From Amphiscolops sp. MND2022 (lineage: Eukaryota): a stretch of DNA of 64,000 bases. Position 1 is the stretch's first letter. Every line of letters starts with the position of its first letter. This document shows positions 12,601 through 64,000 of the stretch, piece after piece. The stretch is taken from NCBI GenBank assembly GCA_964187785.1, contig OZ076409.1, positions 15,502,001 to 15,566,000 of the forward strand. Direction: 5' to 3'. A model generated the notes under the pieces. That model searched no databases. It saw only the letters and a list, made by a program, of their open reading frames with translations, and was not told the origin of the DNA. Made by a program: the position numbers and the translations under genes.

Positions 12601-15600
12601 GTTCCATTGAGACTCAGAAGTTTTGAGATACTCAATGAAAGCGACATTGTCAACGACACTCATCAATTGCGAGGTCTCTTGGACGCTGTCGAGCAATGTG
12701 TATCCAAGAATTCCTTTACGAATAGTAATACTATTCGGGTTCGGATTGTTCAGCATTAAAGGATATTTCGACTCGTCTTGTGAGCAATACACGTGATACG
12801 TGTAAATGCCAGTATCTAAAATGTCTTGGTGTAAACGGAAATTTGTTCCCTGTTTGAACAAATGTTTATCTTCATCTCTAGCAATTAAACTCAAAACTCG
12901 GGTCGAATACGGTGCAATTGTAATGTCTTGAGTCAATTCTACTGAATTAACCTGGGAGAAGTAGGGAAAAGGCTTGTCTAAATAAGGTGACAGTTTAACA
13001 CATTTGCCGGGGAAGACCGTTAAAATTAGCATTGGATTTCTCAAGTTAATGAATTCACCAAAATTTGCCAAAAAATCCATTCCAAGAATGTTCATTCTCG
13101 CCTCGGGGGAATCAGACACATAAACAGTGTGTTCGATCACACAAGAATATTCTACGTCAAACGCAGACTGAATAATAGTTTTCCCTTTCATGGGCATTGC
13201 GTGTCCATTAGCAGCTAAAGGCGATTTCTCGAGAGGCGTTACAACTAAAGGCTGAATTTTGTTAATTTCAGTGAATGTCTCACGGTTGATAATGGAGCAC
13301 GTTGCGCCAGTATCTATGAGAAATTGAGTGCTAAGGCCATTATTTTTATTTTTGTCTCCGACGGCGTATTGAAATAATTCTATATAAAAATGTTGGCCGG
13401 ACGTTCCAGCAGTTGGAATGTGAGGGGTTTCATTTGATTCCTCACTTTGTTGGTTCGGAGACTTGATTAGTTTAAAGGATTGCATGACTGCAGAGTGTCA
13501 TACAAAGAATTCACCTTGTCAGGCTTTGCTTCGAACCGAACAGCTCCAGAGTAGCTGTTACTTCTGCTTCGGTAGCCATTTGAAACATAAGGACTATTAC
13601 TTCTGCCTCTTTGGCCGTTGGACCGATTGTCCGATTGTGATGTGTTATTATTCGGAGACTTGGGTCGACTTGGATAGTTTTGCGCATATGTTTCTTTTGG
13701 TTGGGGAGGAGGTTTTTCCTCGTTTTCTTTCTTCTTTTTCAATGTCCAACAGTACTTGATTGTGTGTCCGGATTTTTTGCAATAGTTGCAAAATCTAGTA
13801 AAGTCTTGTTTCATTTTTGGGTTGTTCGGATCATAGGTAGCATTGATTTGATGATTTTTCACCATGTTGGTGATTTCATTCAATGTTTTCTCTATGTTAG
13901 TGAAACGGGCGTCCATTGTCCCTGTTGAAGTTTGGGAACTTGAAGGTTGCAAGCCGGACATTTCGGCACTCACAACTAAACTCATATCTTTATTTATGAT
14001 AAGAGCCTGTAAAGCGTCCCATGATTTGTTGGGATCTTCAATCATTGCTTGATGGGCTTTCTGTTTAAGACCCGGGGGCATTAAGCCTCTTATGAAGTAG
14101 TCTTTGTACTTCCCAATTCTCTGATTTTCGCATGCTGTGATAGCCTCTTGATTCGCATTTGACGGTGTTGGCCAGCCTTTGTCTACCAACGTTTTTATTC
14201 TGTGGATGTAACTTTTTATGTTTTCATCAGGCTGTCTTTTCAGATTCTCGGCCTCAATTCGGAACCGATATTGCATTTTTCCATCCGTAAACCTGTTTAT
14301 GAATTGTGTTTTCATTTCTTCCCATGCTAACGCAGCGTCTAATGAATCAAACCACTCAGCCGCAGGTCCGCGTAGAACGGATCCGAAAAGTTCTTTTCTG
14401 CGGTCGTCATACACGGTTTGTTGGCCATTTTCATTTGCCGTAGGCCTACTTCCTAAAGAAAAGCTGATTTTCTTTTCTAATAGACGTATAAAAGCAGTTG
14501 GGTCCTCACTTGAATCGATTCCAATGAATTTCTCTAATGCTAAGTCAGGGTACGCTACAGTGTTTGCCATTTGTCTATTTAATCACGTTTACTTTGCTCC
14601 TTTATCACACTTTACAATTTTATTATTATTTTTGGCAATAACAGACTGGATTTTTGTGTAGAAGTTTCTTTGCTCCAATACACATGTAAAAATTGTTTAC
14701 AAAGGAATCTCTTCGATCCTTTCGCAAATAAATAATTTTTGGAGTTTTGTTGCTCCTTTGAAATGGACAGTTTCTGCGTATTTAAGCCTTAACACGGAAT
14801 GTTAAATTCCAAGGCAGCAGGCGAGGTGAAATATGGGCTTTCCATTTTCTTGCGAAACCTCGCTGGGATCGTGCAATTTAAGGAACACTCGTGTGTCAGA
14901 AATAAATTTCTTCCACGGAACCCGCACACGCTAATACCGAAGCTAGCGTAAGTGGATACTGTTTAGACTCAGTACCAAGAGTTGTGCAATTTAAGGAACA
15001 CTCGTGTGTCAGAAATAAATTTCTTCCACGGAACCAGCACACGCTAATACCGAAGCTAGCGTAAGTGGATACTGTTTAGACTCAGTACCAAGAGTATGAA
15101 ATTTTGTTTAGTATCTGCTTTAGATACTAAATGTTGTCAAAAAGTGAATTTTTGTTTAATATCTGCTTTAGATATTAAATGTTGCACAAACAGTTATTAT
15201 TTTTCAAGAAATATTTGCTTTAAATATTTCAATTTTGCAAGATAAAACCCACCACGGGGAAAAGATTTTTGTTTTGTACGCTCGGTTTTATGGTCGTACA
15301 AATTGCGGTGTGAAATTGTTCTTTGCTCTGGTCGCACCAGATGTTGTAAACCGGTGTTTTGGTTACTTAGTACTCGCTTTCTAACCTAAGCAATAAGTCT
15401 CAAAAAGTGTTACGAAAAGGAAGATAAATTAAAACTGGAGGTTTACAGTAAGTAGAATTTTGTTAAGTCCTGCAAATCGCTGACTTGTAAAATTTATAAT
15501 GTTCTGTCAATTTTGGGACTCTTTGTCCTTTCAATTTTGGGGGATTTTCAGAGAGCAAGAGAGAAGGAAAATTGAGAGAAGAGAAAAGAGTTGTTGCTTT

Positions 15601-42600: not shown

Positions 42601-45600
42601 ATCTTTACTCAAATGACTCAAATTTTTCATTTTAGGCAATCGGAAACTGATTGACTTCGTGTTTGAAAATGACTAGTTTTCATCAGTTATATTATGATTA
42701 CTTTTGTCAGTTCTCTCCATCACCCTGCAGAACGACATTGCTTCCGCCCGTGATGCAATTAATCCCGCGTTCGTGTCATTTTGAGCTCTTATCTCTGGTA
42801 GTCATGATCATTTTGCAGTCTTGGGCCAGTAAAGTCGGGCATCAGATGTGCGGAAGCGGCTAGATCTTATATGTAGTCAATGGACACGAGCTCCAATTTT
42901 TTCAAGATTTTCGATTTGTTTTCTCCCTTTCTCGTGTTTTACCTCGTTTGAGGCTATTTTCTTAAACTGCTAACTGTGAAGAAGATAACGTTACACGACG
43001 CCAATTCAAGTGGACTCGTGTACTATCTTTTATATACGATATTTAACATTATCAGCAAAAATTTTCCAATTACTTGAGTTTGTTTCGCTTCTTCACCTAC
43101 TCAAGTGTTTGCTTGCCACAAACTACATTGGTAGTAGAAGAAGTTTGAGTTATAGGAATAAAGGCTGTCTTAAAGGATTCGGCCACGTGGTGTCCAGGAA
43201 TTGACTTAGCTTTTTCCTACCTGACCTTACTGTTTGAGGAACATAGGAATTTGATTTATGAAAAAAGTTAAAAATCTTTCAGACACGACTCATTTTCTTT
43301 TTGATTGTTTTGAGGCTTCCATTAGACGGGCTTTTGCCTCTGAAAGTCTCTTCTGCTCAATGTGTATATTGTAAGTTGTTCGTTGTTTTGTTTGTAACAT
43401 TCAACAGATAAATTTTATTATTTTTATTATATTCTTCCTATGATTATTATGATGATTCATTTCAGTCTATTCTGATATATTCACAAAAATGCTCCGTTAA
43501 CTAATCATTAATCAACATTTATTTTCACGAACTTCGACTAGTATGGGGGAAAGAAAACGTTCGAAATGTTGTTATCGATGTTGCATTTGGTAATCATTGT
43601 CCTATCCGATAGTCTACTCCAGGTAATAACGGGACTGTTCCAAGCGGATGACACTGTGGTCATATCCAGGGAGTCGGCGGCTGGTCTTCTTGCCCACGAG
43701 TCCATCCGAGTGTTCCACGACAGACTCATCGACGACGACGATCGGAGACATTTCTTCAAGATCTTGGCCGAACAACTGCACAACCATTTCAAGGTACCTA
43801 ACGACGAGTTGAATACTCCCTACAGCTTTGAGCCATTCATTATTAAATCTTGTTGATCATTAAAACTCGCAAGAAAAGGTTGACCAACGTTTGAACATTA
43901 GTTATAACTAGCAAGTCACCCTTTCCAAAGAACATGTAAAAGAAGTGTATCGATGCAATCACAAAAGGAGTATCGGAAACGGAATCTTTCACACCATTGG
44001 CTTTTTAAGCTCTGGTCTTGATTCGACCTCTGAAAACAGCAGTTTGAAAATCAAAACCAGACTTGGCAATCAGTCCTCCTTTTATGGTTGTGTTTCGTAA
44101 CAATAAAATTAAAATTCGAATTATTCATTTTCACACATAAAGAGTCTTAAGGAAGTTTTAGGCCTTTACAATCGAGTCTTATTCTTTTTTGAAGCCTTTT
44201 CCGTAACCGTTACAATTTTGATTGAATGAAAAATCCTAATCTTTTCGAGTCCAATGACGTCATTTCTCGTTGTCCAATAAAATTCAATTGCGGAAATGAC
44301 GTCAATAGGAGAGACAAGGTATTATTATTCAGCATTATATTATGATGATGAGGGTGATTCCCTTTTGAGTATGTTTCCACGTGCAAACTGTTCATTCAAA
44401 CCAGTGGTAATGTTTCACATTTTCAGATCAAACTCACAGTGGAGTCCCTGGAAAAATCACCCTTGCTCTATGGAGACTTCTTGGACCTGAATGCACCTTC
44501 AAATGCGAGAATCTACCGGCCCATGCAGAACATCGGCCAGATTGCGTCTATTCTGGAAGAGTTTCACTTACGCAACAGTTTCGGCAGTTCTGCAGGAGGA
44601 GCCAAAGACATGAGTTTCTTCAAGGACTCTGTTGTTCACATCTGTCGGTCGGCCAGAGTATTCCGCCAACAAGGTATCATTCTTTTTAGGAGTCGGGAAA
44701 TTTTTTCGACCACCTATGCAATCATACCTTTTTTCTCTTAACCTTTCAATGAAAATTTCAAATTTCTCAAAAACTGTCCATACGATTTTTGTTATTTCTG
44801 CGATAGCAGGAATTTTATTGAAATCTCAAGATGTCTACTTTTTTTCAGTAAAATTTTTGTCGTGATACTGAATAATTCAGATATTTTGCTCGGCAGTGAG
44901 TATAAGCGTGAGATTTAAATTTCTCAAGCTACCTACAACAATTCGTTTCTCGTGCGATGCAACGAGCGAGTGGTAATTATGCATTCGTACGCTGACGTCA
45001 TTGAGATGAAGTGAGCGAATGTTCGTAATTATGCTTTCGTACGTCGAGTTATTGAGATGAAGCGAATGAGTGTCAATTATTCGTTCGCCGAGAGCTTCGC
45101 CTGCATTCAAATGCGAATGCGAAACTTTGTCGACGCTTAATAATTGTATTTGCTTTAGTCCGAGATTTAAAGGCGGTATAAACTGGTACAGTGATTAATT
45201 GTGCGCTAACTAATGATTAAATAGGAGTGTATTGGTATTCCAGATATGATTCATGATATTATTAATGAAAGATTAAAGCAGAAACAATTGTGTGCCCACA
45301 GGGGCCTATTTCCATAAAATTTTTCGCACTCATTCTACACCCAAAGATGTTCCTGCGTGAACAATGGTATCAAAATCGTATGACTGGGATCTGAGAAACA
45401 TGGCCAAAATTTGTCCGAAAATGAAAAAATGACAGTAAAGTAGTTTATTTGTTTTTCAATTTTTTAATTCGTTTCCGATTCCTTTACCGCACATGCGGCT
45501 CTGGTTGCGATTTTAGATGATTGAAAAAGATTCAACCAAAAATTGAAATCGAGTTTCTGAGAGGGCACATATATATATATATATTTTTTTTCGAAGTTTT

Positions 45601-46795: not shown

Positions 46796-48576
46796 CAGGG
46801 CTGTTCGATTGTTAGTTAAATATTATTTTTAACGTTAATAACAGTTAAAAAGCAAAAAAAACATGTAAATTATGTTAAAAATGTTGAAAACATAAAACTG
46901 AGATCAACATATTATTTCAACATATAAATACGTTCACATGTTCAGTTGCCTGTACAAAAAGGCCAACTTTCCTGCCTTTTCCACTCCCATTGACGTTCGA
47001 AGATTGCCATAAGTATATCCAAGAGTCAAGAAACACCTCTCAAGTCCTCCTGAAGACGATGTACCAGAAACCAATGATAATGCTACCTCAACGAATCGCT
47101 TATCAAATCCAAGTTGAAGTGAAGATCTCCACCATGCGGTAGGTTCTGCGAGGCTATACGGTGGCTCAAAGTATTCCGTACTGTACGACGGGTGTTTAGA
47201 CATAAAGTTCATGACATGTGGCACAACATCTGGATCAATTTCCTTAAAATAATCGAGAGCACTTTTCGTATCTTCAGAATCCATGTTTTTTTTCCAGTGT
47301 AACGATGGTCTAACAGATTTGCAGCCAAAATTACCGGATTATCATTCACTGCCTTTTTGTAGCGCTCACATGTCTCATCATTAAATTGGTCAGGGGTTTT
47401 GTTTCGTAGCTCTCACCATATTTCAAAGCATTCAGAAACGACGCACGAATCTCGTTGCATACGGTCAAGAGCTTTGCTCATCGGGCCAAATATGCACAGG
47501 AGATCGGAAGCAGTTCGCTTCAATTGGACATCCTCCATTAAACGATATATGGCATCGGTGGTTGTCATGAATTGATGACAACCACAAGTGTAGACCAATG
47601 ATCAACAAAGTACTGGAGACTGTCAGCAAACGAGTTCCATCTTGTTTCTACTGGTATCGGAGGTCGCGGAAGACGATGTTCTCGCAGAAGCGCGCTTTCA
47701 GAATGATGATTACGAAGATGCTTCAGCACTTGGACTATCTTCTCAATTGGGTTCTTTAGCTTGTCTTTGATAGCTTTTGCAAGCAAGTTGACATGATGAG
47801 CCTGACAGCCATACGAATGAAGTAAAGCCGAGGGATCCTTTACAAGACGACGCATACCAGCCATGTTACTCGCATTGTCAGTAACAACAGAGCAGCAGAA
47901 TGAAACACCCCATTCTTCTTCCACCTTCTCCACCTGTGACTTAAAGACATCGACTAATCACTCAGTCGTGTGTGGCTGTCCACTTGTGTCCAGAGTATCG
48001 AACAAGTAGGTGTTGCCATAACAGTTACAGCGACGCCCACCACTGGCTGCAAGACCCTGGTAGACCATACATCCAAGGCTAATGTGCCCAATTGAATCTT
48101 GACCAGTTTCTCAACTTTGCCTTTCTCTTCTTCAAACACTTTGTCTAACAATGGTCCTGCGATCAATTGTTTAGTGGGGATTTTAGTTCCTGGCCGCAAG
48201 CCTTCAACTAAACAGCGGAAATTCTGGTTCTCAGCATGCAGAAATGGTCTGTTGGTCCCAATGATGAACTTTGCAATGAGAATGTCAATCTCCTTTTGCT
48301 TGGATGCACTGGTGGTTGCGACATTCAGTGTCGTTTGTGTTAAACATCTCTGCTTTGGCTGGGTAGCTTCAGATACGACAGTGGAAGCCCTCTTGCTGCA
48401 AGAATTCCAATGCCCCCTCATTCGCTCAGCGTTGTTGACCATTTCATGGCTGCACTTTCGACATCTTGCTCTGACATTGCCATCGAACTTCAATTCCTCA
48501 TAGTGATCCCAAATGTTGTCTTTAGTCCTTCCCATTAAGCATCTGAAAAACGAATGGAAATCGAGTCATTACAGTG
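46796..48576 (-). mobile_element. hAT transposon, 3' part; 5' end displaced by a large insertion
   Basis: CAGGGCTG terminus at 46796, transposase pseudogene; partner TIR not in window. Confidence 0.75.
46934..48535 (-). pseudogene. BED-finger hAT transposase, frameshifted
   Basis: IWDHY...ARCRKC...HWNSC BED finger, LALDVWS, VTDNASNM, CQAHHVNLL, ETRWNS, SSGGLERCF spread over four ORF pieces. Confidence 0.9.
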
Positions 48577-48974
48577 CACAGGCAAGCTAAATTTGCTCAA
48601 AGCACAATTTTGTGCTTTCAATACCTCGGATTCCACGACCATACCTTTAACCGTGCAAAATTGGCAAATTACGTCATTTGTCGTGGATTCCACGGATTTT
48701 GTCGTGGATTCCAGTAACATATGCTTAGCTGTACAAACTGTCGGCATGCAGCGGTGTCCCGGATTCCACAAAAACGTAAGTTTTCCGAAATGAACCAATC
48801 AGATTGCAGAAATCGTAAATTTCCTGGATTCCACGACTTTATGCTTGACGCGATACGCGGCATTTCTTGTTTGAATTAAATTCAAGTGGATGACTGAACA
48901 AACATGATATTATGCACTACTTTTCGTATATTAATTCAAAATGAATCAGACAATCACACCAATATCACACAAAA

Positions 48975-49740
48975 TTTTTGTATTTTTCAGTTTAGTACCA
49001 GTTTTGGAGAAACTACCAGATCATCACAATCTGCCATTATTTGATGACATGCTTCAATTTTGGTACCAGTCACGAGTATCTCTATTCGTACTTTGGGATT
49101 TTTCGTGTCAATCAAAACAATTTCCTTTGATATAAATTGATTTAATTCAAGTTCTTTTGCCTTTCTAATAATGATCATGCAAAATGAATATTATTTTACA
49201 CAAATATTCGTATTTTTCAGTTTAGTACCAGTTTTGGAGAAACTACCAGATCATCGAAATCTGCCACTTTTAAATGACATGCTTCAATTTTGGTACCAGT
49301 CACGAGTATCTCTATTCGTACTTTGGGATTTTTCGTGTCAATCAAAACAATTTCCTTTGATATAAAATTGATTTAATTCAAGTTCTTTTGCCTTTCTAAT
49401 AATGATCATGCAAAATGAATATTATATTACTGTTTTTCAGTTTAGTACCAGTTTTGGAGAAACTACCAGATCATCGAAATCTGCCACTTTTAAATGACAT
49501 GCTTCAATTTTGGTACCAGTCACGAGTATCTCTATTCGTACTTTGGGATTTTTCGTGTCAATCAAAACAATTTCCTTTGATATAAAATTGATTTAATTCA
49601 AGTTCTTTTGCCTTTTAATAATGATCATGCAAAATGAATATTATATTACGCAAATATTACTGTTTTTCAGTTTAGTACCAGTTTTGAACAAACTGCCAGA
49701 TCATCACAATCTGCCATTTTTCGATGACATGCTGCATGTC
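48975..49740. repeat. ~230-bp tandem repeat (3.3 copies)
   Basis: tttagtaccagttttg at 48991, 49221, 49441, 49671. Confidence 0.9.
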
Positions 49741-50518
49741 TCTCTGACTTCTAATAGCAATGCAATTTGGCTAAAAAAGTAATTCAAATGTGAAATGAAT
49801 CATGAATATTTTGGGCCCAATCGTGAGTAATTTTAGTGAATGTCGGACATTCATTAACAGACGACTCAATATTATAATTTGCCAAATTTTGCTGAGCTGT
49901 AATTTTTTGATTGGTTGCCCCGTACACCGACCACTGAGAAGGTTTGGAATTTTTACGTAATTTTATAGCATAACCTAAACCCATAACATCTAGTTTTTCA
50001 CTTTTTCGAACAATGGATGAAAATCAAAGTAGCTATCGATTCTGAATGACCCAAACAACAATTCGATATATTGTCATGGTTTCCACCATTTCGAGCATAA
50101 CGTCCTGATTTCCACCAAAGTACAACTCATTGCTCAATGGCCACGAAAACAACTGTGGAAAGTAAGACCATATCTTTAAACATGTGTCGTGGAAACCACA
50201 TACATATATTAAACTGTAAGAAAACAACTACCAAAGGGGGTAGTACGTTAATATTTAAATCTGAATGTATTTTCCTGGTTTCCACCACCTGGTTTCCTGG
50301 TTTACGAGAAAATTTAGCGGTCAAAAGCATTCACAATTCAAAAGATTCACTGAAAAAAGTGGGGAAATTACAAATAAATTTTTCTGAGTTCGATTGTTTA
50401 ACCGGGTATTCGTTTTATTTTTATGTTATTTGAAACTAATTTCATTTTTATGTTATTTGCTCTTATGCTATTTGGTACATAATCAATTGGAGAAGGGGAA
50501 CAACCAATCAGAGCCGAG

Positions 50519-52261
50519 TTGGCAGAAATGAACGAGCGCGCGAAAACGGAGAAAGCGGCAAGTGTGATAGACGAGAATAAACAGACTAAACGAACACTGA
50601 AGAGCATAATTGCCACAATTAACGAGAACAACAGCGACAGTAATTCAGACAAAATGAGCTCAACGGAATCAGAAAACGAAACAAGTACAATCGAATTTGC
50701 ACATAAACTGCCTCTGAAAACCCCACTTTGCTACTCAATGGATCAAGTTGAAATTTTGCAAACATTGGGCAACTACACATTTGCTGCACACTTTGAAAGC
50801 GACGAATTCCTTCAAAAGATATTAAATTTAATGAAAACGCCAGATTCCACGAAAATAAATCGATTACCGGCTCCATGGCGCGAGAAATTTCGCTGCTTTA
50901 GTAGAGACAGCAACGATTACATTTATATGGACGAACGACTGGTAGTTCCAAAAGCATTGCGCCCCATCATTCTACGAAGTTTACACTATGGCCATCCAGG
51001 ACGTGACAGTATGTTGGCAATAGCCGCAAACGTGTGGTGGCCAAGATTACATCGGGACGTAGTGGGACTAGCAAAACACTGCCAACAATGCCAAGCATCT
51101 GGTAAGAATATAAAACCAATGCATATAAAACCAATGAATATAAAACCAAGGCAAAAGGGAATAGGTCACTTACCGAAATGTATTGAAATTAATCAAGAAA
51201 TAGCAAAAGATTTGGCAGGCTCTTTCCAAGACGCAATTAATGCAAGGAAATACCTATTAGTATCAGTTGATCACTCTAACGGATGGTCAGAAGCAAAATT
51301 TCTGAGGTTGAGAGCAAATAAGAAAATAATCACCCAAAAGGACTTATCTGGATTGTCTGAAATATTATTCGCTCTGAGAATGAACCCATCAGCCAATAAG
51401 AAATCACTATTTAAAAGATACACTGGGCAGGAACCAAATACGATAAAAAGTTTGGTAACTAATCACCCTCGATCTATTTCAGAACATCCAGAATTCAGTC
51501 TGACGGAAGAGGACTTCGAATCCGGACAGGATTCCACAATCTTAGTACGTGAACGTACCAAAGGCTCGAAGCTCGAGGGAGCATACAAAAAGAGACGAGG
51601 AGTTTTGCTTGAACAGAGCAATCACTCAATAACTTTCCTCACAGCTGGACCATCGAGAACAACGGTAATCTCAAAAAGAGACGTTGGACAACAAAATACA
51701 ACATGTTCTTCAAAATGGAGACAACCCTCAAAACTGCCAGTATTGAAAAAAATGGCAGAACACGAAAAAACTGCAACAAGCGATAAACAGTCAAAAATCA
51801 CAACCACATCAAGCTCGCAGAGTGAACAAAATCAACGCGAATCAACAGACCAAGCAGAAATGACGGGAATCAATGATCAAGCAAGGAAGAATCAAACAAC
51901 GGCGTTGGCCAGCTTAAAACAAAAGATGAGAAAACGACTATTGGTTGAAAACAGCAAGCGAACAAAACGACAAAAACAATGGATTGAGCAAAACACAATC
52001 CAAACGGAATCAGAAGGCGAGAATGAAGAAATTAACCAAAACCCAGAAAAGTCAGAGGGAGAGAGACGAGAGGACGAGGATCAACAAAGAAAAAACAATC
52101 AACAAGTGGAACATGAAGTAAACAACCCGGTAACCGGAGAACAGAACGAAAACCGCCGAAGCCAAAGACACCGGAATAAACCCAACTTCTTTGGGAACAA
52201 CGTAATGGTGACACAGGTGTCCCGATTGGAAGATATAAGAGAAAGCTCACCTGAATACTGA
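50519..52261 (+). pseudogene. Degenerate Gypsy pol fragment (integrase region with internal deletions)
   Basis: RLVVP...LHYGHPG...WWP...CQQCQ; DDE core partly deleted; GGGGGAA-TG PPT/LTR-like junction near 52459-52467. Confidence 0.8.
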
Positions 52262-54100
52262 GCAGTAAAACTCCATTCAAAACTTTAACCCTAAAACTAC
52301 TACATTCTAGTACTGTACGTGAACAGTAAAACATTTGAGTTGCTAATTTTATACACATTTGCGTTGCTATAGCTTACCATTTACATTTATATTAAAACCG
52401 AAGCATATATTCATATTGAGTACTGTAAATGCATAGACCTGAATTCTTTTCCATAATTGGGGGAATGTGGCAGAGCAAATACCGCTAGCACTACGTAACC
52501 TCTTTCAAGAAATTCATGACAAACACAATCGAACTCGAAAAAGATTTGAAAAGAATCATTACCATATGGTCTAATCAAAATACATGGTTACTCTAAATTC
52601 AATAGTTTTATCTAAAGAAGAGAGTTAGCTACAACACCATATTACAAGGATGGAGAATTTATAAACGGTAACAAATTCAAAGCCATGACAGACACCGGCT
52701 CTCCAGTACCCACTTTTGAACTGGATGAAATATGACAAATAATGAAAAGCGAAAAGTTGAAAGTACGCCCAATGATCGAAGAGGAAAAAAATGTGGAATA
52801 GAAAAGCAATAGAACCAATCAATAGAAAAGGACAAATACCAAATGCCAAACCTAGAAAATTTACTAGATATGTTTGCAGAAAAGTTAGATACCGCGCCTA
52901 ATCCTTGTTTGCTAGCGTAGTACGTTAATATTTATATCTGACTATAGTGTCTTGGTTTCCACCATTTTGAACATATTGTCGTGGTTTCCACCAAAATAGC
53001 ACTCATTGCTCAATGGCCGCGAAAACAACTGTGGAAAGTAATACCATATCTTTATACATTTGTCGTGGAAACCACATACATATATTAAACTGTAAGAAAA
53101 CAACTACGAAAGGGGGTAGGTAGTACGTTAATATTTAAAGTTTTATAGACCGTCCTATGGTCATGAAAATATTGCTCAATGTTTGAATGGCGTTTTAAAA
53201 TAACCTGGCATTTAATATTATTTTGCTTGTGATTAAAATATGGCAGATTTGGTTAAACTTCAACTTTTCAACTGGTTTACCATGGTTTATCATGCCATCT
53301 ACTTCTCGCGACGTAACGAGGTCTGATATGTTGGTTTCTCCTTCACTGTAGCTGATCTTAGGACTTCACGTTTTAGCAGAGTATGAAAAATATAGTCTCT
53401 TACAACTAACTTGAATTAGGATGTATTCTTATTACAGAGATACCCAAATTAAAGAACAGAATTCTGATGGTTTGAAAGAGTAATGTATCGCTAGATATGA
53501 ACTCAAATGTCAACACAGCATAATTATCACAAAATCTTTTTTCATTTTAGTATACAAAAAGGCCTCCGTTTTGTCCTCATGAAAGATTTTCTGGACATTT
53601 TTCGTCTCTCTAACTTCTAATAGCAACGAATTTTGGCTAAAGAAGTAATTCAAAGGTTTATCATGTCCTCTACTTCTCGCGACGTAACGGGGTACAATGT
53701 GTTGGTTTCTCCTTCACTGTAGCTGACCTTAGGACTTCGCGTTTCAGCAGAGTATGAAAAATATAGTCTCTTACAACTTACTTGAATTAGGTGTGCTCAT
53801 TAGAGATACGCAAGTTAAAAAACAGAGTTCTAATGGTATTATTTTGAAATATCAATGTATCGCTAGAAATGAACTCAAACATCAATACAGCATGATTACG
53901 GTGTCCCATTTTTCCCCACAGCATTGTTGTACTCTGGGGTACACAAAGTAATCTCACAACATTCTTCATCTACGTCGTTGTCATCATCAATGTTGTCAAT
54001 TTCTCCGGCAAAAGTGTCCTAATCATGCTTGCAAAAGAAGTTTGGTAGTCTCTGGTTCGAGGAAAATTACTTCAGGGGCGATGGTGTAATCTTTGGTGCA

Positions 54101-54554
54101 AGGGTGTTCAATAATTTATTCGAATATCATTATTGCCTATAAATGAATTATTTCATTTTCACTGTGGAAAAAAATGAGTTTATTATTTTTTTGCTAACAT
54201 CTTTGTTTTTATTCTCAACGAAAAACGGATATCAACAAAAACTTTAATTAGCCATCCATAATCGGGCCAAAACAGGGGACAGGGTTTTTCTAATGGACTC
54301 TTCGACCGTTTGAGTAAGTAGCCCAAGGCATTTAACAAAAGTATTTTAAGAAATTAGCTCAAGATTTCAGTTTTTCCGAATTCAATTGGCTGACAATATG
54401 GTGAATTAAGCGCTTTCAGTTTTAGTTATCTCAAGAATAAATATTTTAAAAGGTCCAAAAACAATTATTTTTAATCATTCAAGTGTAAAATTGAAATATT
54501 TTATTTTATTTGTTGTAATTATTCTTACCCATAAGTTTTTATTGAACACCACTG
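54101..54554. mobile_element. Tc1/mariner-like MITE inserted in a decayed transposase 3' copy
   Basis: AGGGTGTTCAATAA / TTATTGAACACC termini; flanks rejoin to match about 56975-57060. Confidence 0.65.
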
Positions 54555-54848
54555 CTTTGGGTCTAACAACGTAACTACCTTTTTGACATCCATGATAAAA
54601 TTCTTCTTCGAAAAGAAAAAGTTAGGACTCCTTGGCAGGCCAAGTTAATAAGGACAGGTGAAACAGCCATTGTCATAATGCACTATATAAAAGGTTAGTT
54701 ACTTCACATCAGTTAACCTGTTAACAAAATTTTAACTCAAAATCTAGAACGCGTGCATTGTATGACAAGTACAATGTAATACGTTACCAATGTATTATGT
54801 TCAAGTTCATGACTGGGCGGTTTCATCTCGATTTAGAAGTCTCTTTTT

Positions 54849-55088
54849 TCACCTCATTCTAAATCCGAAGAACGGGTCGATTCTCACGCTTCCACTCGGC
54901 CCGTCCCGTAGGACACACTGCTTCCGGCAAAGGGGGCATGCAACTTCTAATCTCGCCTGGGCCCACCCTCTGCGCTCGTTGTCGCGATCCTTTACGTCAA
55001 TCCAACGATTGCGGCATTCCTCACAGAGGAAGTGTTGGTCGTGGAGGCTCGTTCGTGTTTCTTCATGGCAGACCATGCACTGAGGCAT
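54849..55088 (-). CDS. Small RING-finger protein
   Basis: 79 aa, CxxC...HxxCxxC...CPxCR spacing. Confidence 0.65.
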   Translation of the reverse strand: MPQCMVCHEETRTSLHDQHFLCEECRNRWIDVKDRDNERRGWAQARLEVACPLCRKQCVLRDGPSGSVRIDPFFGFRMR

Positions 55089-55609
55089 TTTGCGATATAA
55101 GATGGCGGTATCAAAAACTAAGGTTAAAAAATTTCGAAGTTCGGCAAGTTTTTGCTAGGCAGTATTGCAAATGAATGACTGGTTAAACCAGTAACCGAAA
55201 TTTCAGCAAACATTGAAAGATTTCAACTAAAGGGAACGTCCCTTTTGTTCACGGTACCTTGGCGTTTTTTCAAACTTAAACTGGCTTTGATGCATTACTT
55301 GCTTTCTTTACTGAACACGCGGACATTGATAAACAACCTTTTTCGAGCTAACAATTAATTAGAACCTTAATTACGGACAAGTGAGATCAACAATTTCTCT
55401 TTGTTCAGCAATTGCTATTGAACCGTGAATAAGAACATTTTGAAAATGAATATGAACATTGTAAACGCGACCAGGCCGCCCATATTTTGTCCCCGGTGTC
55501 CCAACCATCATGACATGTAATAGCAACGAATATTTGTCTCTTTGACTTGTAATAAACACGAAATTCGTCTCAAAAGTCCTAGTCTCACGAAAACACTGAT
55601 CAATTTTGC

Positions 55610-56170
55610 ATGGCATTTTTCGGAAACGTGACATTTATTTATAACTGTCTTGTCATCAAAATATGGCAGATTTTTATCAACTGCCAGTTTTTTATAAGCA
55701 TTCAACCAATGAGCTCGTTCTTGAATGGTCCTAAAACGACTGTGGAAAGTAGGACCATATCGTTATACATGTGTCGTGGAAACCGCATACATATCTTAAA
55801 CTGTAAGAAAACAATTACCAAAGGGGGTAGTAGTACGTCAATATTCAAATCTGACTGTATTGTCCTGGTTTCCACCAATTTGAGCATATTGTCCTGGATT
55901 CCACCAAAATAGCATTCACTGTTCGATGGCCACGAAAGCGACTGTGGAAAGTAAGACTATATCTTAATACATGTGTCGTGGAAACCACATACATATCTTA
56001 AACTGTAAGAAAACAACTACCAAAGGGGGTGGTACGTCAATATGTAAATTTTAATATACCGTAATAGTGTCCTTGAAATATTGATCGAAATTGAATGACG
56101 TTTTAGAAAATTCTGGCAATAATTTATATCTGGCTTAAAATTGAAATCTGGCAGATTTTGATGATTTGGT
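55610..56170 (+). repeat. ~200-bp-unit repeat module
   Basis: Two units of ctgtggaaagta...gtggaaacc...gggggtagtacg; related copies at 50075-50290 and 52916-53260 (+). Confidence 0.85.
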
Positions 56171-56736
56171 ACATTTTCGATTAGTTAGCATTTTTAGAGG
56201 CCGGCTTTTTGGTCTCTCTGACTTCTCATAGCAACGAAAGTCGGCTAAAAAAGTGATTCAAAGGTGAAATAAATCATGACTAATTTTGGTCCCAATCGTG
56301 AGTAATTTTTTTACTCACGATTGGGACCAAAATATCACAAAATCTTTTTTCATTTTAGTATACAAAAAGGCCTCCGTTTTGTCCTCATGAAAGATTTTCT
56401 GGACATTTTTCGTCTCTCTAACTTTTAATAGCAACGAATTTTGGCTAAAGAAGTAATTCAAAGGTTTATCATGTCCTCTACTTCTCGCGACGTAACGGGG
56501 TACAATGTGTTGGTTTCTCCTTCACTGTAGCTGACCTTAGGACTTCGCGTTTCAGCAGAGTATGAAAAATATAGTCTCTTACAACTTACTTGAATTAGGT
56601 GTGCTCATTAGAGATACGCAAATTAAAAAACAGAGTTCTAATGGTATTATTTTGAAATAGCAATGTATCGCTAGATATGAACACAAATATCAACACAACA
56701 TAATTACGGTGTCCCATTTTTGTTGAACTCTGGGGT

Positions 56737-59700
56737 CTACAAAGTGATCTGAGAACATTTTTCATCTATGTCGTCGTCGTCGTCATCATCAATGTTGTCA
56801 ATTTCTCCGGCAAAAGTGTCATCATCATTCTCGAAAAAGAGTTTTGGTAATCTAGTTTGTCCATTTCTGTATCGTTTGAGATAAGCCACAGCCGATATAT
56901 TCTCATTTGATTTTTTCCCTGATATTTGATCAATGAAGAGTGGTCTCATATCATTTACTCTGGCTCGACGAAAATTACTTCCGGGGGCGATGGTGTAATC
57001 TTTGGGGTCTAACAACGTAACTCCTTTTTTGACATCCATGATAAAATTCTTCTTCAAAAAAGTTAGACCTCCTTGGGCAAATTTTTGAGCAATTTGTGAG
57101 TATTGGGCGGTTTCTTTTTTCTGTTTTGCTGTGAGTTGCGATGATGGGTATTGACTGTCCGAATCTGAACACTGGGACGTGGAAAGTCTTAGTTTTTTCG
57201 CCGGCGGCATCTTCTTCTTCAGTTCTTCAATTTCTTGCACAGAGCCTGTGGCGAATATTAGGTCTTCTTTGTCTTTGACCAGAACGAAACAATTAGGCAA
57301 CTGTGAATGAGTCTTCATGAGGGTGTCTGCTTGATCGTGTTCAATGAATATACCCCCATCTCGTTGATGAGTTTAATCAGAACATCCTTCGTCAACGAAA
57401 TCCCATCAACTACCCCTAATCTTCCAATTGAAGTGAACCTCATACCACTTAAAAGTTGGGATTCGGGATGCGACTTCCCGATTGCAAGAGAAATCGAGGA
57501 AATTTGGGTCTTAGAAATTTCGAGGTACGTTGGTCCGGGGTATTTGGCATCCAAATCATCAACAAGTTTTTCAAGTATTTCAGATATTTTCAAGCACTCT
57601 TGCTTCATTGTTCTCATTTCAATGGACGTACAGAGTAACTTTCCAAATGAAGATGACAATTCCAGGAAAAGAGGATCTTTATGGTAAATTTTACCGCCAC
57701 CACGCATGGTTTTTGTCTGGAAATAGCGATTCGCGTGATGGTTGGATTTTTCAAGCCCTTCGCACATGTGGTCAAATGGTCTTTCCACAAACCCTCCTTC
57801 TACAATCTGTGGCATCATTGCGAGCTTCAACTTATATGGTGTCAATGAGCTTTCACCAAATAACAAAATGCTTGTCTGATAATATATTTCAGCCCATTTC
57901 TTGTAGCATTGGGCGTCAAACTGCTCAGATCTCAAGAGAATTGCACAGCGGTTTAGGCTGGAGCGCAGCAATTCACATGCATCTGTCTTCGAGATGTATA
58001 GATTGGCGGATGTCTTGTCACTAGGGTGGGGCTTATCGAAAAGTTCTGGGAGAAGTTGGTTTAGTATTTGTGCACTAGCAGCAGAATCACTCCCAATAAC
58101 AATATCGTTTTTGGGATCCCACACATCTTCAAAAAGATTCCCTATCGAACAATCATTTGCGCCAGCCAATTCCTCTTTTTCTGCTATGATACATAGGGCA
58201 TTACTTCCGGCTAATGACACACTGTTTACAGTACCAACACCTGAACCTAGTTTTGTGTTCACATTGAAGTGGAAATATGGCCTTTTTGCATCACGTCGTG
58301 TAAGATTTTCTTCGAAGGCTTTGAGTGAGGGGCCATAATCGGGATACTTGTCAGTGATTATTTTCTGCGCCACTCTCTTCAAGTCGTTTTCAACACATCT
58401 GGTGATCATGTGCGTCGGGTCAGGGCATATACATCGTACGTCTTGGAAATAAACAAGGGATGTTTTTGGCAGTTCCTCTCGAAAAGGTATTTTGAGATCG
58501 GTTCTCAGACCTGTTTCGGGATGGCAATTTGTTGGCAAAAAGCTACTATCAGGAACATGAAGTGGCATTTTTGATTCGAAATTCGTTTCACAAGAAATTC
58601 CAAGTATCAGGCGTAACAAAAATGGTGTATCTCCACTGTAGGTTAGATTAACTCCACGATCTGACAACTCCGATGTTTTCTGGTAGAGCCAACCCGAACT
58701 TTGGTCACCAGCTACAGTTGGTCCAAGGTTCTGTTCCATCGCGAATCGGCTGTCTTTCCCTCGATACGATGCAAAACAGAACACTGAATTTGATGACTGG
58801 CAACTAATTTTTTCTGATAACACTCGAAAGGCAAAACGGGTTGTTTCCAGGCCTCCAATTTCACAACCGTCGCCCCAGATATCAATTCTCAAACCACGTA
58901 AATCATAAATTCCGAACAGGTATGCGGCCAGCTCAACACATTTTATCAGATCGCATCGGAAACCGGAGAAAGTTCTTTCGGGCTGACATATTGAAACAAA
59001 ATACGTCTGGATTTCAGCTGTTGATTTCTTGATCAAGCGTATACAGGGTACTACGTTGTATCCCAAGCCAACTACCGAAAGTTTTGATCTGATAAGTCTT
59101 ATGACTGCCTCTGTATTTCCAGTTTGAGCAGTAAGTGATAAAATGTGCCTGAATTCCTTGGTGGATCCTCGATTCTCAAAAAGCCGGTCGATTAGAATTT
59201 TCACCACATTCACGTCTTCCTTCTTTGTGAATCCCTGGGATTTCCGTTTATTCATATTGTCTTTCACTTGTTCTACAAACTCAGTGAACCCAATTTCTTT
59301 ATTATTGTTGGCCTCATCGATGACATTTTTCCAAAAACAAGTGGCTGCTTCTTTGTTCAAGCTGTTTGTTCTCTTAAACGATGCACGCATCTCTTTAGGA
59401 ATTGGACTTGTCACTGCAACAAGGTCCATTATTGGTGGTGCATGCAGATCCGAGGTATGTAGTGCAAGGGGATTCAAGGTTGGTGTTACAAAAGGACAGA
59501 AAGTGAAGGTATCTTCGTAAGGAATCAAATGTCGAGGGGCGAAGCATTCCACAAACCTTTTCCTTGCATCAGTCCAGTGGAAATCCTTGAACCCTCGGAA
59601 GATTAGAAACATCGCAATTTTTGCCTGTAAAGAAATTTTTTGAAAAAGGTTTTTGTGGTAGATGTGTAAATTTTTAGTAAAGTAATTAGTAAATGTCGTT

Positions 59701-60306
59701 TTAGTAATTGAAGATGAGGAACAAAAGGAGATGGAACAGGAAGAAAAGGCTAAATCCCCAAGAATAGGCGGACGAACAAGATCAGGCAGAATGGTAAAAA
59801 ACACTTGTTTTACAGTTATTGTCATTTGTTACAAATTTGCCAAATTCAACTGCTATGGCAACTTTCTTACTTTTCGCCAATATCAGCTAGAACTAAACAG
59901 TTTTTGTTGAAGATTTTGAAATATTATTTAAGAAAAAAATTTGTACACTAAAAAAATTTGCTCCGGTACAGAGGACATGGAAACAAAAACATTGGCGATC
60001 CATCGTTGTTTTTCTTCTTTTGCTTTAAATCAAGGCAGCTCTTTCTCAAACAACAATTTAGAAAAAAAAGTTACTTACTGCTATACACACAGTCGGTTTG
60101 CTTTGTCCTTTCATGGGAATTCTCCGGAGAAGGTCTTTGGTATTTAACCCACACCCGGCGAATGCATCGTCAATGATCGTTTCGAATTTTCTGTATTTGT
60201 TCGTGAATTGTTTCTCGGCTATGACTTCGAACATTTTGCAGTCGATAAACTGCAAATTCTCATCGACTTGTACTGAATGGGCATTCCAAAGTGCTAAGGG
60301 TTCCAT
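56737..60306 (-). CDS. RAG1/Transib-like DDE transposase with C-terminal BRCT-like domain; 2 coding exons (60306-60079, 59624-56737), one 1-bp frameshift at 57353-57357
   Basis: WGDGC, SGDT, DPTHM, TPY, CEGLEKSN motifs; GCA|gtaagt donor and tttacag|GCA acceptor in phase; adding one G joins the 836-aa and 193-aa ORFs through LINEMGG. Confidence 0.7.
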
Positions 60307-60559
60307 TGAAAAAGCGTTGATATGAGATGTCAACAATGTTGTATTCAACTCAACTAGTGATGAAGATGTACGATGGTCACAGTGACTATCTGAAATATAT
60401 TTGCAGAATGACGCTTTGATTAAAAAGTTGAGATTAGGAGTTTAGATGAACCGACACGTTAACAAAAAGAGGGTTATTCAACACCATAATAAAAACACTA
60501 AGCTCATTCGTTAAAGTAAACCAGTCGAAAAAACAGAAGTTTAGAAGAATCTGCGCGAT

Positions 60560-61300
60560 TTCGATGACAAGCCAGATATAAATAAAGGCCAGAATATTCT
60601 AAAACACCTTCTAAATTGAGCAATACTTGCATGACACTACTACGGTACATTAAAATTTCAATATTGACGTACTATTTTCGCTGAATGTCAATCTGAAAAA
60701 ATGGCAGTTTATCAAAATCTGCCAGATTCTAATTACGAGCAAAATGATAATAATTGCCAGAATATTATAAAACTCAAAATTGGACAATGTTTTCATGACC
60801 ATAAGACGGTTTATAAGGTTTGAAATATTGACGTACTACCCCTTTTGGTAGTTGTTTTCTCACAGTTTAAGATATGTGAGTGGTTTCCACGACACATGTA
60901 TAAAGATATAGTCTTACTTTCCACAGTCGCTTTCGTGGCCATCGAACAGTGAATGCTATTTTGGTGGAAACCAGGACAATATGCTCAAAATGGTGGAAAC
61001 CAGGACAATACAGTCAGATTTGAATATTGACGTACTACCCCCTTTGGTAGTTGTTGTCTTACAGTTTAAGATATGTATGCGGTTTCCACGCCACATGTAT
61101 AAAGATATAGTCTTACTTTCCACAGTCGCTTTCGTGGCCATCGAACAGTGAATGCTATTTTGGTGGAAACCAGGACAATATGCTCAAAGTAGTGGAAACC
61201 AGAACAACATACGGTATAGATGAATGATTGAGCTCAATCGGTGAATGTCAACCAATGAAAAAATGACAGTTAAACAAAATCTGCCATGTTTGAATGACAA
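60560..61300 (-). repeat. ~200-bp-unit repeat module, inverted relative to 55610-56170
   Basis: actttccacagtc cores near 60916 and 61115. Confidence 0.85.
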
Positions 61301-61695
61301 TTGTATTTGAAAAAAATTGCTTCTTTATCAAACTTGACCTCGCAAAATTGATCCTTTTCTATTAGTAACCGGGGCAAATTTCTTGAATCAGTAGAAGCCT
61401 TTTAAACATTCAGTTTTTTGCTTCTCACCTTTTTAAACCAATTAGTAAGTTATTTTCCAATTCTCGCTCAGCTGGAAATAGAAATCAAATTTCAACTCAA
61501 CTTACTTTTACAAAACAACATCTGCTCCAAAACACTTTTAATTTGTACATCTGGTTGAAAATCTGGTTCAAAGTAAATCGTTCGGAAAGTGAGCAAAATG
61601 AATACTGTTTTTTGAAGAAAAAAAAACAAAAAGAAGTGTTCAGAATAAATGGACTCTTAAAAAACACAGGAAGATGTTTGTCACCGAGTCGCCTT

Positions 61696-63298
61696 TCACG
61701 AAAAAAGGGACCGAGCTGTCGGGTCCTCGTAATCGAATTTCAATTCTTCGAAAGGGCTTATATCTCTTATAGCCCTGAAGCAGCAAACTCGGGTCTGGTC
61801 ATAAAGCACAATGTCAGTTTGCTTTATGTTTGCATCTTTGGAGCAGTGGTTAATCAGGCGTCCCAAACATCGAATTTTTGGGTGACTTCCACATATCTCA
61901 GAGGAAGCGTTGATCAGTCTCCGCCCGGGACCTTTCACCTGGAACAAAGAAGTTTCAAGAACACCTTACAAAAGTCCACAAGTTTTAACGAACACTGAAC
62001 CTAAGTCCATGAGATTTTCTATAGAAAATTACACATCCAACAACATACTAAGAAATCATGTTTTGAAAAGCAAAAGTTTTGTATACTTTCTTTCAGCTAC
62101 GTCCTAGTTGAAACTATTGATTTTTCCTCTTCACTTTTAGCTCTCGAGGTCCAAAATTGATAAAAGAACAAATCCTCATACTTTGACTTTTTAGATCTAT
62201 TTTTATTTCTCTTTATTCACTTGGTATGTACCTAACAAACGAACTTTACATTACTTACCTCCATCAGATACTCGGTCTGTACGCCTTCCATCGCTAGAGC
62301 TTGTGTCAATGTCATTTTCTCGAGTATTTCACTGTGGTAGTCAAGAACAATCTCGTTTTTAAAAAACATCTGTGTGCTGACCACTCCGCGTCCATAAGAT
62401 TTGAAATTGACTGGACATACGCCTGGCCAGCTCTGCGTGTCACATCGTTCTAATAGGAAGGTCTGACACTCGAAATCCATGTTATGTGCCATCCCTTTGT
62501 ACATTATTTTGGCAGAACCATCACTGTCCATCCGCCTCGAATCTGGATTTTGTAGCATAGGTAGAACCAACAGAAACACTTTTCTAATGTCCTGTTTGAC
62601 GTCTTCTGGGGTTGTCCATTTCTGCCTCTGGAAAAATCCTTCGATTCTTTTCTCCAAGATGTTCAAGTCACATTTCCCGTTCATATATTTGAAGAACGTT
62701 GTGGCTCGAGCTGACTGTCGTGCGTATCGTTGAGCATCTTGATGCTTTCTCACGCATGTTTTGATAGTATCCTGGTCAAATTTATTGCCAAATTTTCCTT
62801 GCACTTCCCTGATTTGATTTTTCAATTTTGGCAATCGTGCTTCAGGGTCGTCAACAATTGGATAGATGAGTTCTAATTTGAACTTCAGCTGATTGGCTGG
62901 TTTTTTACATTGTTGAAGTACCTGAAATACATGCTTTAGATTAAATATATGATCTTTTGCACTAGAACTACAATGGTTTAGCAGATGTAGATTTTTCAAT
63001 CGAAGTTGTTTTGAAAACTCCGAATTATATAAAAAGCAAAAAAAAACAAACGTACAGGGATCAAATACTGGTCGACAACATGGCTCCGTCTAAAACAAGA
63101 CTTCCCAACAGAATTGACGAACAGGAGCTCAGTCACGACTGGTCGGTCATCACTTTCGGAGACACATCGTTGGAATTTCACACCTTCGGTTTTGTTGAGA
63201 AAGTCAGGTCTCGTGTGGCTTGCATACTCAACCAAACCTTCGATTAACCAGCGTGGTGTATTGTATTGTACTCGAGAAACAGAATCTGCAAAAGACAT
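61696..63298 (-). CDS. SET-domain lysine methyltransferase (SETD8/PR-Set7-like); exons 63298-63056, 62921-62259, 61938-61696 (about 382 aa)
   Basis: GRGVVST...VLDYH, LGRLINH, RDI..FEELKFDY; GT-AG introns all phase 0. Confidence 0.82.
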
Positions 63299-63519
63299 TT
63301 AACTTTGTGGATTATGCTAGACAGAATCTTTCAGACTGTAGATAATTAGTCTAGCCCTTAATGTATTTATACTCCATATTTATATTAGTTGCTTGTAAAC
63401 AACCTGTACCTGCCACCTGTAAATAAGTTTCGAGTTTTCAGGTTTTTTTGAAATTTTTATTATTAGAAAGACAAAATAGGCCCAAAATATTTTCGCCTCT
63501 GAGAACTCTAACCAATCGG

Positions 63520-64000
63520 AAAGCTGGCACTTGAACAAAAGTTGCCAGATTTTGATGAAAAGCCAAATAATATTAAATGACATGTTATTTTACAACGCAA
63601 TTCAACACTGAGCAATATTTCCATGACCATATGATGGTTTATAAGGTTTTAAATTTTGATGTACTACCCCCTTTGGTAGTTGTTTTCTTACAGTTTAAGA
63701 TATGTATGTGGTTTCCACAACACATGTATAAAGATATAGTCTTACTTTCCACAGTCGCTTTCGTGGCCATCGAACAGTGAATGCTATTTTGGTGGAAACC
63801 AGGACAATTCAGTCAGAATTAAATTTTGACGTACTACTACTACCTTTGGTAGTTGTTTTCTTACAGTTTAAGATATGTATGCGGTTTCCACGACACATGT
63901 AAAAAGATATGGTCTTACTTTCCACAGTCGTTTTAGTACCATTCAAGAACTAGCTCATTCGTTGAATGCTCAAAAAATGGCAGTTGATAAAATTCTGCCA
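63520..64000 (-). repeat. ~200-bp-unit repeat module, inverted copy of the 55664-56160 module
   Basis: Window end reverse-complements to tggcagaattttatcaactgcca...gactgtggaaagta seen at 55664. Confidence 0.85.

Follow-up and report, generated by a model that had tools for sequence, protein, structure and literature searches.

A 40-kb mobile element of Amphiscolops with a RAG1-like transposase and SETD8-like, JmjC and Tudor-like companion genes

We analysed a window of 64,000 nucleotides from the genome of Amphiscolops sp. MND2022 (assembly GCA_964187785.1 of 1.07 Gb, contig OZ076409.1, positions 15,502,001 to 15,566,000) together with its contiguous extension, in which positions above 64000 continue the window numbering and position n equals G000:C1 position 15,502,000 + n. 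The window holds the left part of a 39,994-bp mobile DNA element, the reality of which we regard as practically certain. It carries a gene for a transposase with a RAG1-like fold alongside genes for a SETD8-like SET protein, a zinc-finger JmjC protein and a Tudor-like protein. These four genes are common to all four families of the element in this genome, as are inverted pairs of a 9-bp motif spaced 83-84 bp apart. We propose, with a probability of about 0.55 judged from the sequences, that the companion genes form a self-directed anti-silencing cassette which would control the chromatin of the element itself.

Both ends of the element were located (Table 1). The terminal inverted repeats begin CATTA, and a GT target duplication stands at 48565-48566 on the left and again directly after 88560. 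The element is thus larger than the >15 kb of the original prediction, which expected the other terminus beyond 64000. A left end at 48577, where the sequence starts CAC, was ruled out, since every copy breaks at 48567. The six closest copies that we fetched match from 48566/7 to 88560 with ~99-99.8% identity in long blocks. Four of these are full length (39.8-40.6 kb) and two are shorter (29.9 and 27.4 kb), with internal deletions whose breaks lie at repeat modules. A search with 430 amino acids of the transposase returned at least 98 scored matches, 73 of them at 90-100%, 17 at ~67% and 8 at ~64% identity. These results bear out the prediction of a large transposon with dispersed copies, as opposed to a single-copy locus, and the copies appear to be young and recently spreading.

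In all 21 copies of which both ends were read, the target duplication is 2 bp long and of no fixed sequence (7/7, 2/2, 10/10 and 2/2 from four batches; two further fetched copies showed one end only). A 3-bp duplication would also fit in only one of the 21, and the dinucleotide is TA in three. The window copy interrupts a decayed hAT-like element, as predicted, and in three of five other fetched copies of that hAT-like element the site is empty and the dinucleotide present once. Because of these duplications and the empty site, movement of 40-48 kb as a single unit is evident, a property relevant to the delivery of large cargo. Its ends, target duplications and transposase fold imply that the element moves by cut and paste, with a staggered cut of 2 nt. 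We counted 881 occurrences of the terminal 18-mer in the genome, compared with one for a control pattern. Six closely spaced pairs of it that were fetched represent non-autonomous derivatives of 139-981 bp, and four widely spaced pairs bound elements of 47-48 kb. Derivatives of 0.8-1.0 kb keep the ~230-bp tandem array. Elsewhere the 18-mer is repeated in one orientation, with 1.6-kb and 2.7-kb spacing (G000:C1:37549067-37560052 and 40103609-40109124), which suggests tandem arrays of element ends. No relative was found in the viral contigs searched.

The minus-strand transposase gene was confirmed where it had been predicted, with a GT-AG intron. Its product is ~1,040 amino acids long in intact copies and consists of a RAG1-like fold followed by a C-terminal BRCT domain. 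In the window copy, a run of five G near 57355, versus six in all six near-identical copies, shifts the frame in the BRCT region, and either a mutation or an assembly error may account for it. The structure model, with a predicted local distance difference test (pLDDT) score of 77.7, has RAG1 as its best structural match (Foldseek E 4.4e-6; Z 17.1, root-mean-square deviation 3.9, 381 residues aligned), followed by BbRAGL (Z 16.4), HzTransib (11.8), P element (11.5) and Hermes (8.2). Likewise, RAG1 clusters rank near the top of an atlas search (0.91-0.93), in keeping with the RAG1 fold originally proposed. Sequence identity to the RAG1, RAGL and Transib matches is 9-13%. The catalytic layout D-D-(DxxH)-E is kept, and among 34 homologues D248 (24/24), D328 (30/30), H401 (34/34) and E618 (34/34), which we take to be the counterparts of the RAG1 residues, are invariant where covered. 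Neither a C(2)C nor an H(3-4)H motif is conserved in these 34 sequences in the stretch from the second D to the final E. The only Cys or His columns at >=60% are C279, C396, H401, H615, H625 and C700, with H615 and H625 conserved in place of the zinc motifs of the CMCT clade discussed below.

Sequence models add little to this assignment. No Pfam transposase model matches any of 33 homologues at E 0.05, in a Pfam copy that may lack the newest RAG1 models, and BRCT is the sole Pfam domain found in more than one of them (10 and 6 members, with BRCT_2 in 10/33). A PDB sequence search with the transposase profile returned nothing beyond weak BRCT matches. Relatives are widespread, falling into 595 clusters (at 50% identity) at E 0.001 and 201 at 1e-30, and the weak ones among the 595 may match through BRCT alone. 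We also observed that an expanding 13-aa peptide repeat in the N-terminal linker of a family 1b transposase (L095) lengthens the open frame to ~1,175 aa, and that this linker position is occupied by unrelated repeats in several distant homologues.

The transposases of the four families are 47-100% identical (47-51% for family 4), and the window copy belongs to family 1. From the others we fetched one copy of family 2 (17.1 kb), two of family 3 (17.8 kb) and two of family 4 (~16 kb). The first 11 terminal bases are alike in all four families, with one mismatch at one family-4 end. The four shared genes stand in three orders, with SET and the Tudor-like gene head-to-head in all. Within 25 kb of the 73 family-1 transposase matches listed, we found SET at 70, JmjC at 62, a RING-like open reading frame (ORF) at 65 and all three at 56, where the chance of a neighbour gene is ~0.7% each; the RING count took in 115 of 150 RING rows, and one row left out adjoins a family-1 transposase. 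In family 3, SET and JmjC each accompany 8/8 of the transposase matches listed. Among the matches listed for family 2, JmjC is present at 15/17 and SET at 0/17, but the fetched family-2 copy does carry SET, so that the SET genes of this family probably fall outside the matches listed. Counted in reverse, again among the matches listed, a transposase lies within 25 kb of 64/73 close SET and 60/75 close JmjC matches. A set of SET matches at 42% identity had looked like independent genes, being without a transposase among the matches listed, yet two fetched copies are family 4 with all four genes, and 19 of the 26 lie within 25 kb of a transposase match (compared by eye). Thus, a SETD8-like gene is indeed mobilised with the transposase as predicted, whereas the gene kit has to be revised: its conserved partners are the JmjC and Tudor-like genes beyond 64000, outside the window, and not the RING.

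The companion genes show constraint similar to that of the transposase. Ratios of non-synonymous to synonymous substitution (dN/dS), each from a single pair, are 0.27 for the transposase, 0.22 for SET, 0.25 for JmjC and 0.33 for the Tudor-like gene between families 1a and 1b, and 0.13, 0.10 and 0.11 for transposase, JmjC and Tudor-like gene between families 2 and 3, where the synonymous sites of SET are saturated. Purifying selection has thus preserved SET, JmjC and the Tudor-like gene across deep divergence and in three gene orders, and this selection and retention imply that the cargo serves the element.

The SET domain (PF00856) was detected in the exon at 61699-61965 with an E value of 1.4e-7, above the cut-off. 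The gene had been bounded at 63298, a position that lies in a splice-acceptor region; homology with the single-ORF SET of family 4 indicates an exon further upstream and a probable start near 65097. SETD8 is the best match of the protein, except in family 4, where a different SET entry (4ldg) ranks first, ahead of SETD8. The NH and xDY motifs are intact in all four families, each of which also has Phe at the position of SETD8 Tyr334, the mono-methylase switch. The Y334F replacement in SETD8 gives di-methylation. PDB entries 3F9W/3F9X are listed as SETD8 Y334F, one with dimethyl-lysine (PMC3529403; here and below, published work is cited from the parts of each source available to us). A homologue search returned 18 proteins, as sequences without genomic context. 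A candidate second SET gene at 69.5-70.3k was ruled out, the segment being the 3' part of the JmjC gene.

The JmjC exon alone falls below the Pfam cut-off, and its best match is PHF8 (E 7.5e-13). The WHxD..K residues, including the 2-oxoglutarate Lys, are intact in all four families, and the distal His is matched in three. C2H2 fingers are found in place of the N-terminal PHD finger of KDM7/PHF8, although the first exon of the gene is uncertain. PHF8 and KDM7 remove H3K9me1/2, H3K27me2 and H4K20me1 (PMC6130214). The Tudor-like protein has no Pfam match. We named it for its model (low confidence, pLDDT 53), the beta-barrels of which match Spt5 KOW, Agenet, Tudor, PWWP and BAH domains. An atlas search with this protein gave nothing above 0.78, and a homologue search gave 10 proteins, likewise as sequences without genomic context. 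In the window copy of the gene a run of A is 11 long, compared with 9 in four of five other copies. In 23 metagenome loci (contigs of 1.1-7.4 kb) with distant transposases (38-40%), a Tudor-like homologue adjoins the transposase in four (E 2e-21 to 7e-5), upstream and on the opposite strand; at L082 the match is weak and abuts a partial transposase. In the metagenome loci L072 and L075, integrase-like or low-complexity ORFs also adjoin the transposase.

The same repeat module had been predicted to separate the genes. It is present between them as claimed, and it also occurs in both orientations and, in several cases, inside introns predicted for SET, JmjC and the Tudor-like gene. A 35-mer from the module has 710 occurrences in the genome. 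On C1, all 59 of the exact matches listed lie in or beside family 1 (compared by eye), which rules out there a free miniature inverted-repeat transposable element. BLASTN found no match to the module in families 3 and 4. The 9-bp motif was first noticed in family 1, in the module and the subterminal regions, and then counted in families 2-4. It occurs 55 times in 40 kb inside family 1 versus 2 in 74 kb of flanks, 20 in 17 kb versus 2 in 23 kb for family 2, 12 in 18 kb versus 5 in 32 kb for family 3, and 24 in 16 kb versus 0 in 14 kb for family 4, corresponding to 0.7-1.5 per kb inside and 0-0.16 per kb in the flanking DNA. Families 1-4 contain 11, 6, 3 and 4 inverted pairs with a spacing of 83-84 bp, against random-placement means of <=0.15; in each family the count is higher than in any of 5,000 random placements. 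Across families the 110-bp motif-pair units can be aligned, and within each family they have been homogenised.

We favour self-directed chromatin control because a PHF8/KDM7-like eraser fused to fingers of a DNA-binding type is accompanied by a fixed motif scattered over the non-coding parts. The motif pairs around the genes and near both ends would be bound by an accessory protein with sequence specificity, for which the zinc-finger JmjC protein is the likeliest candidate. JmjC would strip repressive H3K9me1/2 or H3K27me2 from the element, SET would add a methyl mark (on H4K20 by descent, and, given the Phe in the switch position, probably di-methyl) and the marks set by SET would be read by the Tudor-like protein. 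The element would thereby stay transcribed, and the transposase would keep access to its ends. Module amplification and recombination, with pick-up of RING and integrase fragments, may account for the growth of family 1. Several points weigh against this proposal. The similarity of SET to SETD8 is distant (E 2e-5 to 1e-4), so that H4K20 is an assumed substrate, and H4K20me2 is not obviously an activating mark. The transposase itself may bind the motif in place of an accessory protein, because the motif is also subterminal. The model of the Tudor-like protein is of low confidence, and its structural matches reach a Z of 8.8, a value within the range expected for common barrels. The family-1 module units are copies of each other and hence non-independent, and one family-3 motif pair aligns in another register. 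Finally, the 23 short metagenome loci contain eight single motif sites and no pair, and neither SET nor JmjC, nor RING, was found in them.

Three other explanations were weighed, and they are not all exclusive of the first, since chromatin control, repair steering and helper roles could coexist. The cassette might mimic the SETD8-H4K20me2-53BP1 axis and bias the repair of excision or insertion breaks, with SET making H4K20me2, the Tudor-like protein reading it, the transposase BRCT recruiting repair factors and, in family 1, the RING adding ubiquitin signalling. The 53BP1 Tudor domain reads H4K20me2, and SETD8 works with RNF8/RNF168 (PMC8897848), so that SETD8-like, Tudor-like, BRCT and RING-like parts echo the H4K20me2-53BP1-RNF168 axis; the Phe in all four families, the Y334F structures and the BRCT_2 matches among transposase homologues fit as well. 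We nevertheless consider repair steering unlikely: it leaves the motif arrays around genes and the zinc-finger JmjC unexplained, no RING was found in families 2-4, and most H4 already bears H4K20me2 in the cells reviewed (PMC8897848).

Less likely again is that the Tudor-like protein is a transpososome helper, comparable to TnpA or RAG2, that binds subterminal motifs or histone marks, helps to bring together ends that lie as much as 40 kb apart and selects target sites, the internal motif pairs being copied end sequences. In families 1, 2 and 4 the motif forms clusters at the two ends, and the Tudor-like gene is the sole partner seen beside the distant metagenome transposases, both of which would suit a helper. 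Left without explanation are two enzymes that are catalytically intact by motif, and the fixed 84-bp pairs are internal rather than terminal. That the companions are captured host genes which hitchhike without helping the element seems highly improbable, and is largely refuted by dN/dS values of the cargo that match those of the transposase; moreover, the gene set is kept in four families and three orders with its catalytic residues intact. Passive cargo would still account for the passive-looking integrase fragments and duplications in family 1, and for the persistence of two of six sister copies despite large internal deletions.

Table 1. Coordinates of features of the element and its insertion site (window numbering; ext, extension beyond 64000)
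Feature	Position	Strand	Remarks
Whole element	48567-88560 (G000:C1:15550567-15590560)		39,994 bp; runs beyond window end
Left 15.4 kb of element	48567-64000		part inside the window
Left terminal inverted repeat	48567-48589	+	23 bp, perfect
Right terminal inverted repeat	ext 88538-88560		partner of left repeat
Subterminal 9-bp motif copies	48627-48833; ext 88415-88514		5 sites left; 4 more right
~230-bp tandem array	48962-49736; ext 87900-88344	+ (left)	also near right end and internally
Captured gypsy-type integrase fragment (Integrase_H2C2)	50483-52258	+	
RING-like ORF	55088-54849	-	79 aa; family 1 only; His at third ligand position
Repeat module	55733-56050	+	inverted motif pair 84 bp apart
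Further repeat module copies	near 50.1k; 52.9-53.1k; nine places beyond 64000		
Transposase	60306-56737	-	exons 60306-60079, 59624-56737; GT-AG intron 60078-59625
Repeat module between transposase and SET	60825-61207	-	inverted relative to 55.7-56.0k copies
SET gene, part inside the window	61696-64000	-	predicted exons 63285-63056, ~62921-62259, 61939-61696
Repeat module in predicted first SET intron	63648-63937	-	
SET first exon	ext 65097-64362	-	predicted; beyond window
Tudor/BAH-like barrel gene	ext 65660-68446	+	head-to-head with SET
C2H2 zinc-finger and JmjC gene, PHF8/KDM7-like	ext ~73598-69544	-	
Small 82-codon frame in triplicated segment	ext 74795, 77775, 86119	+	putative coding
Two further gypsy-type integrase fragments	ext 80624-82455, 83509-84915	-	
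Host site, decayed hAT-like element	46796-48566	-	DUF659 E 1e-4, below cut-off; resumes at ext 88561

A RING-like ORF is present where a RING gene had been predicted, with a best Pfam match to C3HC4 RING of E 0.0012 (19.3 bits versus a cut-off of 50) and a ligand pattern that departs from the canonical one. It was not found in the fetched copies of families 2-4 and falls outside the conserved set; because it is found in family 1 only, we regard it as an add-on. Its dN/dS is 0.105 over 79 codons. RING-like matches of 56-69% identity also occur at places without a listed transposase match, and clusters of such ORFs, 64-69% identical and with no listed transposase nearby (G000:C2:51.84-51.97 Mb, C1107 and C424), are a possible source of the captured RING. 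Some family-1 copies have a second, inverted RING ~21-25 kb away (e.g. G000:C3:32848799 and 32870088; C7:18416232 and 18440884). Multi-kilobase inverted repeats around the RING, suspected from such pairs, were ruled out for the window copy, where the RING is single and the inverted repeats are 23 bp long. The small triplicated frame has a dN/dS of 0.42 (single pair).

As predicted, the element lies in an intron of a dynein heavy chain gene. The intron is ~59 kb long, preceded by an exon with AAA_8 at 45798-46187 and followed by exons near 105.6k and 106.7k. The dynein gene occupies window positions 1-46400 and the extension to ~107k, with very large introns that hold nested elements. The intron-rich dynein gene, the types of retroelement and the atlas neighbours fit a host that is probably an animal. 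An earlier intron contains a minus-strand Gypsy-type retroelement (4367-14582), the translations of which read as long open gag, protease, pol, an env-like frame of 726 aa and a further ORF, with LTR (long terminal repeat)-like repeats near 3.8k and 15.5k. Immediately right of the element, the same intron holds a second gypsy-type retroelement (89510-96116; L051-L052), and a short repeat in a dynein intron (44810-45288) is 90% like the flank of a non-autonomous copy (L118). One family-4 copy (L112, G000:C13:52695001-52705000) adjoins a Polinton/Maverick-like region with Pfam matches to double-jelly-roll and rve integrase and with polB-like and ATPase-like ORFs.

Anti-silencing by a transposon has been demonstrated in the VANDALs of plants; elsewhere it is a proposal, often made for decayed elements. 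The idea is directly testable here, as four families combine young, near-identical copies with enzymes intact by motif and a candidate binding site. As a distant RAG1 relative without zinc motifs, the transposase also bears on the evolution of RAG and Transib enzymes.

A 2-bp target duplication is known from Mirage. The CMCT clade is given as EnSpm/CACTA, Mirage, Chapaev, Transib, Plavaka, ESTA as well as Lanisha, with C(2)C and H(3-4)H motifs common to all its lineages (Kojima 2025, PMC12730594). Our element resembles this clade in its CA..TG termini, its RAG1-like DDE core and a duplication within the 2-5 bp range, but has neither motif, and differs in its C-terminal BRCT and its SET, JmjC and Tudor cassette. 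We therefore describe it as apparently CMCT-like and file it in none of CMCT, Transib/RAGL, ESTA or PlavakaB. The original assignment to a RAG1/Transib-like group did not hold: the transposase shares with Transib/RAGL its best structural matches and catalytic layout, whereas that group has 5-bp duplications, CAC ends, a ZnC2/ZnH2 site and a RAG2L partner (PMC7204232), compared with 2 bp, CAT and neither of the latter two seen here. No kelch domain, as in RAG2L, was matched among the subset of the element's ORFs that was scanned. PlavakaB, with 2-3 bp duplications, accommodates our 2 bp in 21/21, but its termini are CATCA..TGATG, one base different from the CATTA..TAATG of all four families. 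ESTA differs in its TA-specific duplication.

Large DNA transposons on record include EnSpm elements of 16-20 kb and Teratorn of 41-182 kb (PMC6431247). HarbingerS, oomycete MuDR, SET- or oxygenase-carrying Helitrons and fungal TET-carrying elements likewise bear chromatin-enzyme cargo, but belong to other superfamilies and generally carry one enzyme, with no writer, eraser and reader set described in the parts of those accounts available to us. The set of transposase, SET, JmjC and Tudor was not found in the literature searched, which excluded subscription journals and Repbase Reports, where Lanisha is described, so that a family name may exist. Such cargo is thus known in kind, and the combination is apparently new.

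The closest precedent is the red-algal Plavaka with PAG1-3, also a large DDE element with three accessory genes, including SET and a 2-oxoglutarate oxygenase, and adjoining inverted-repeat arrays, for which self-modification has been proposed (bioRxiv 2025.02.11.637652). Its proteins are an adenine methylase-SET fusion and a ParB-oxygenase, whereas our element has SETD8-like, PHF8/KDM7-like JmjC (with C2H2 fingers) and Tudor-like proteins, no Plavaka Pfam match and young copies. In VANDAL elements of Arabidopsis, similarly, a short motif has multiplied in the non-coding parts and been homogenised family by family, and VANC targets lie in introns, intergenic and terminal regions (PMC5735166). 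They differ in their Mutator transposase and in that VANC acts on DNA methylation, with binding demonstrated there and predicted here (PMC5735166). A tentative extension, which we hold to be doubtful, is that the element represents an undescribed superfamily-level RAG1-fold lineage, with a zinc-less core, a BRCT tail and 2-bp duplications, whose ancestral form would have carried a complete histone writer-eraser-reader kit aimed at its own DNA through a conserved 84-bp motif pair, a spacing of eight helical turns or about one nucleosome gyre. Such a lineage would be an enzyme-based counterpart of VANC outside plants.

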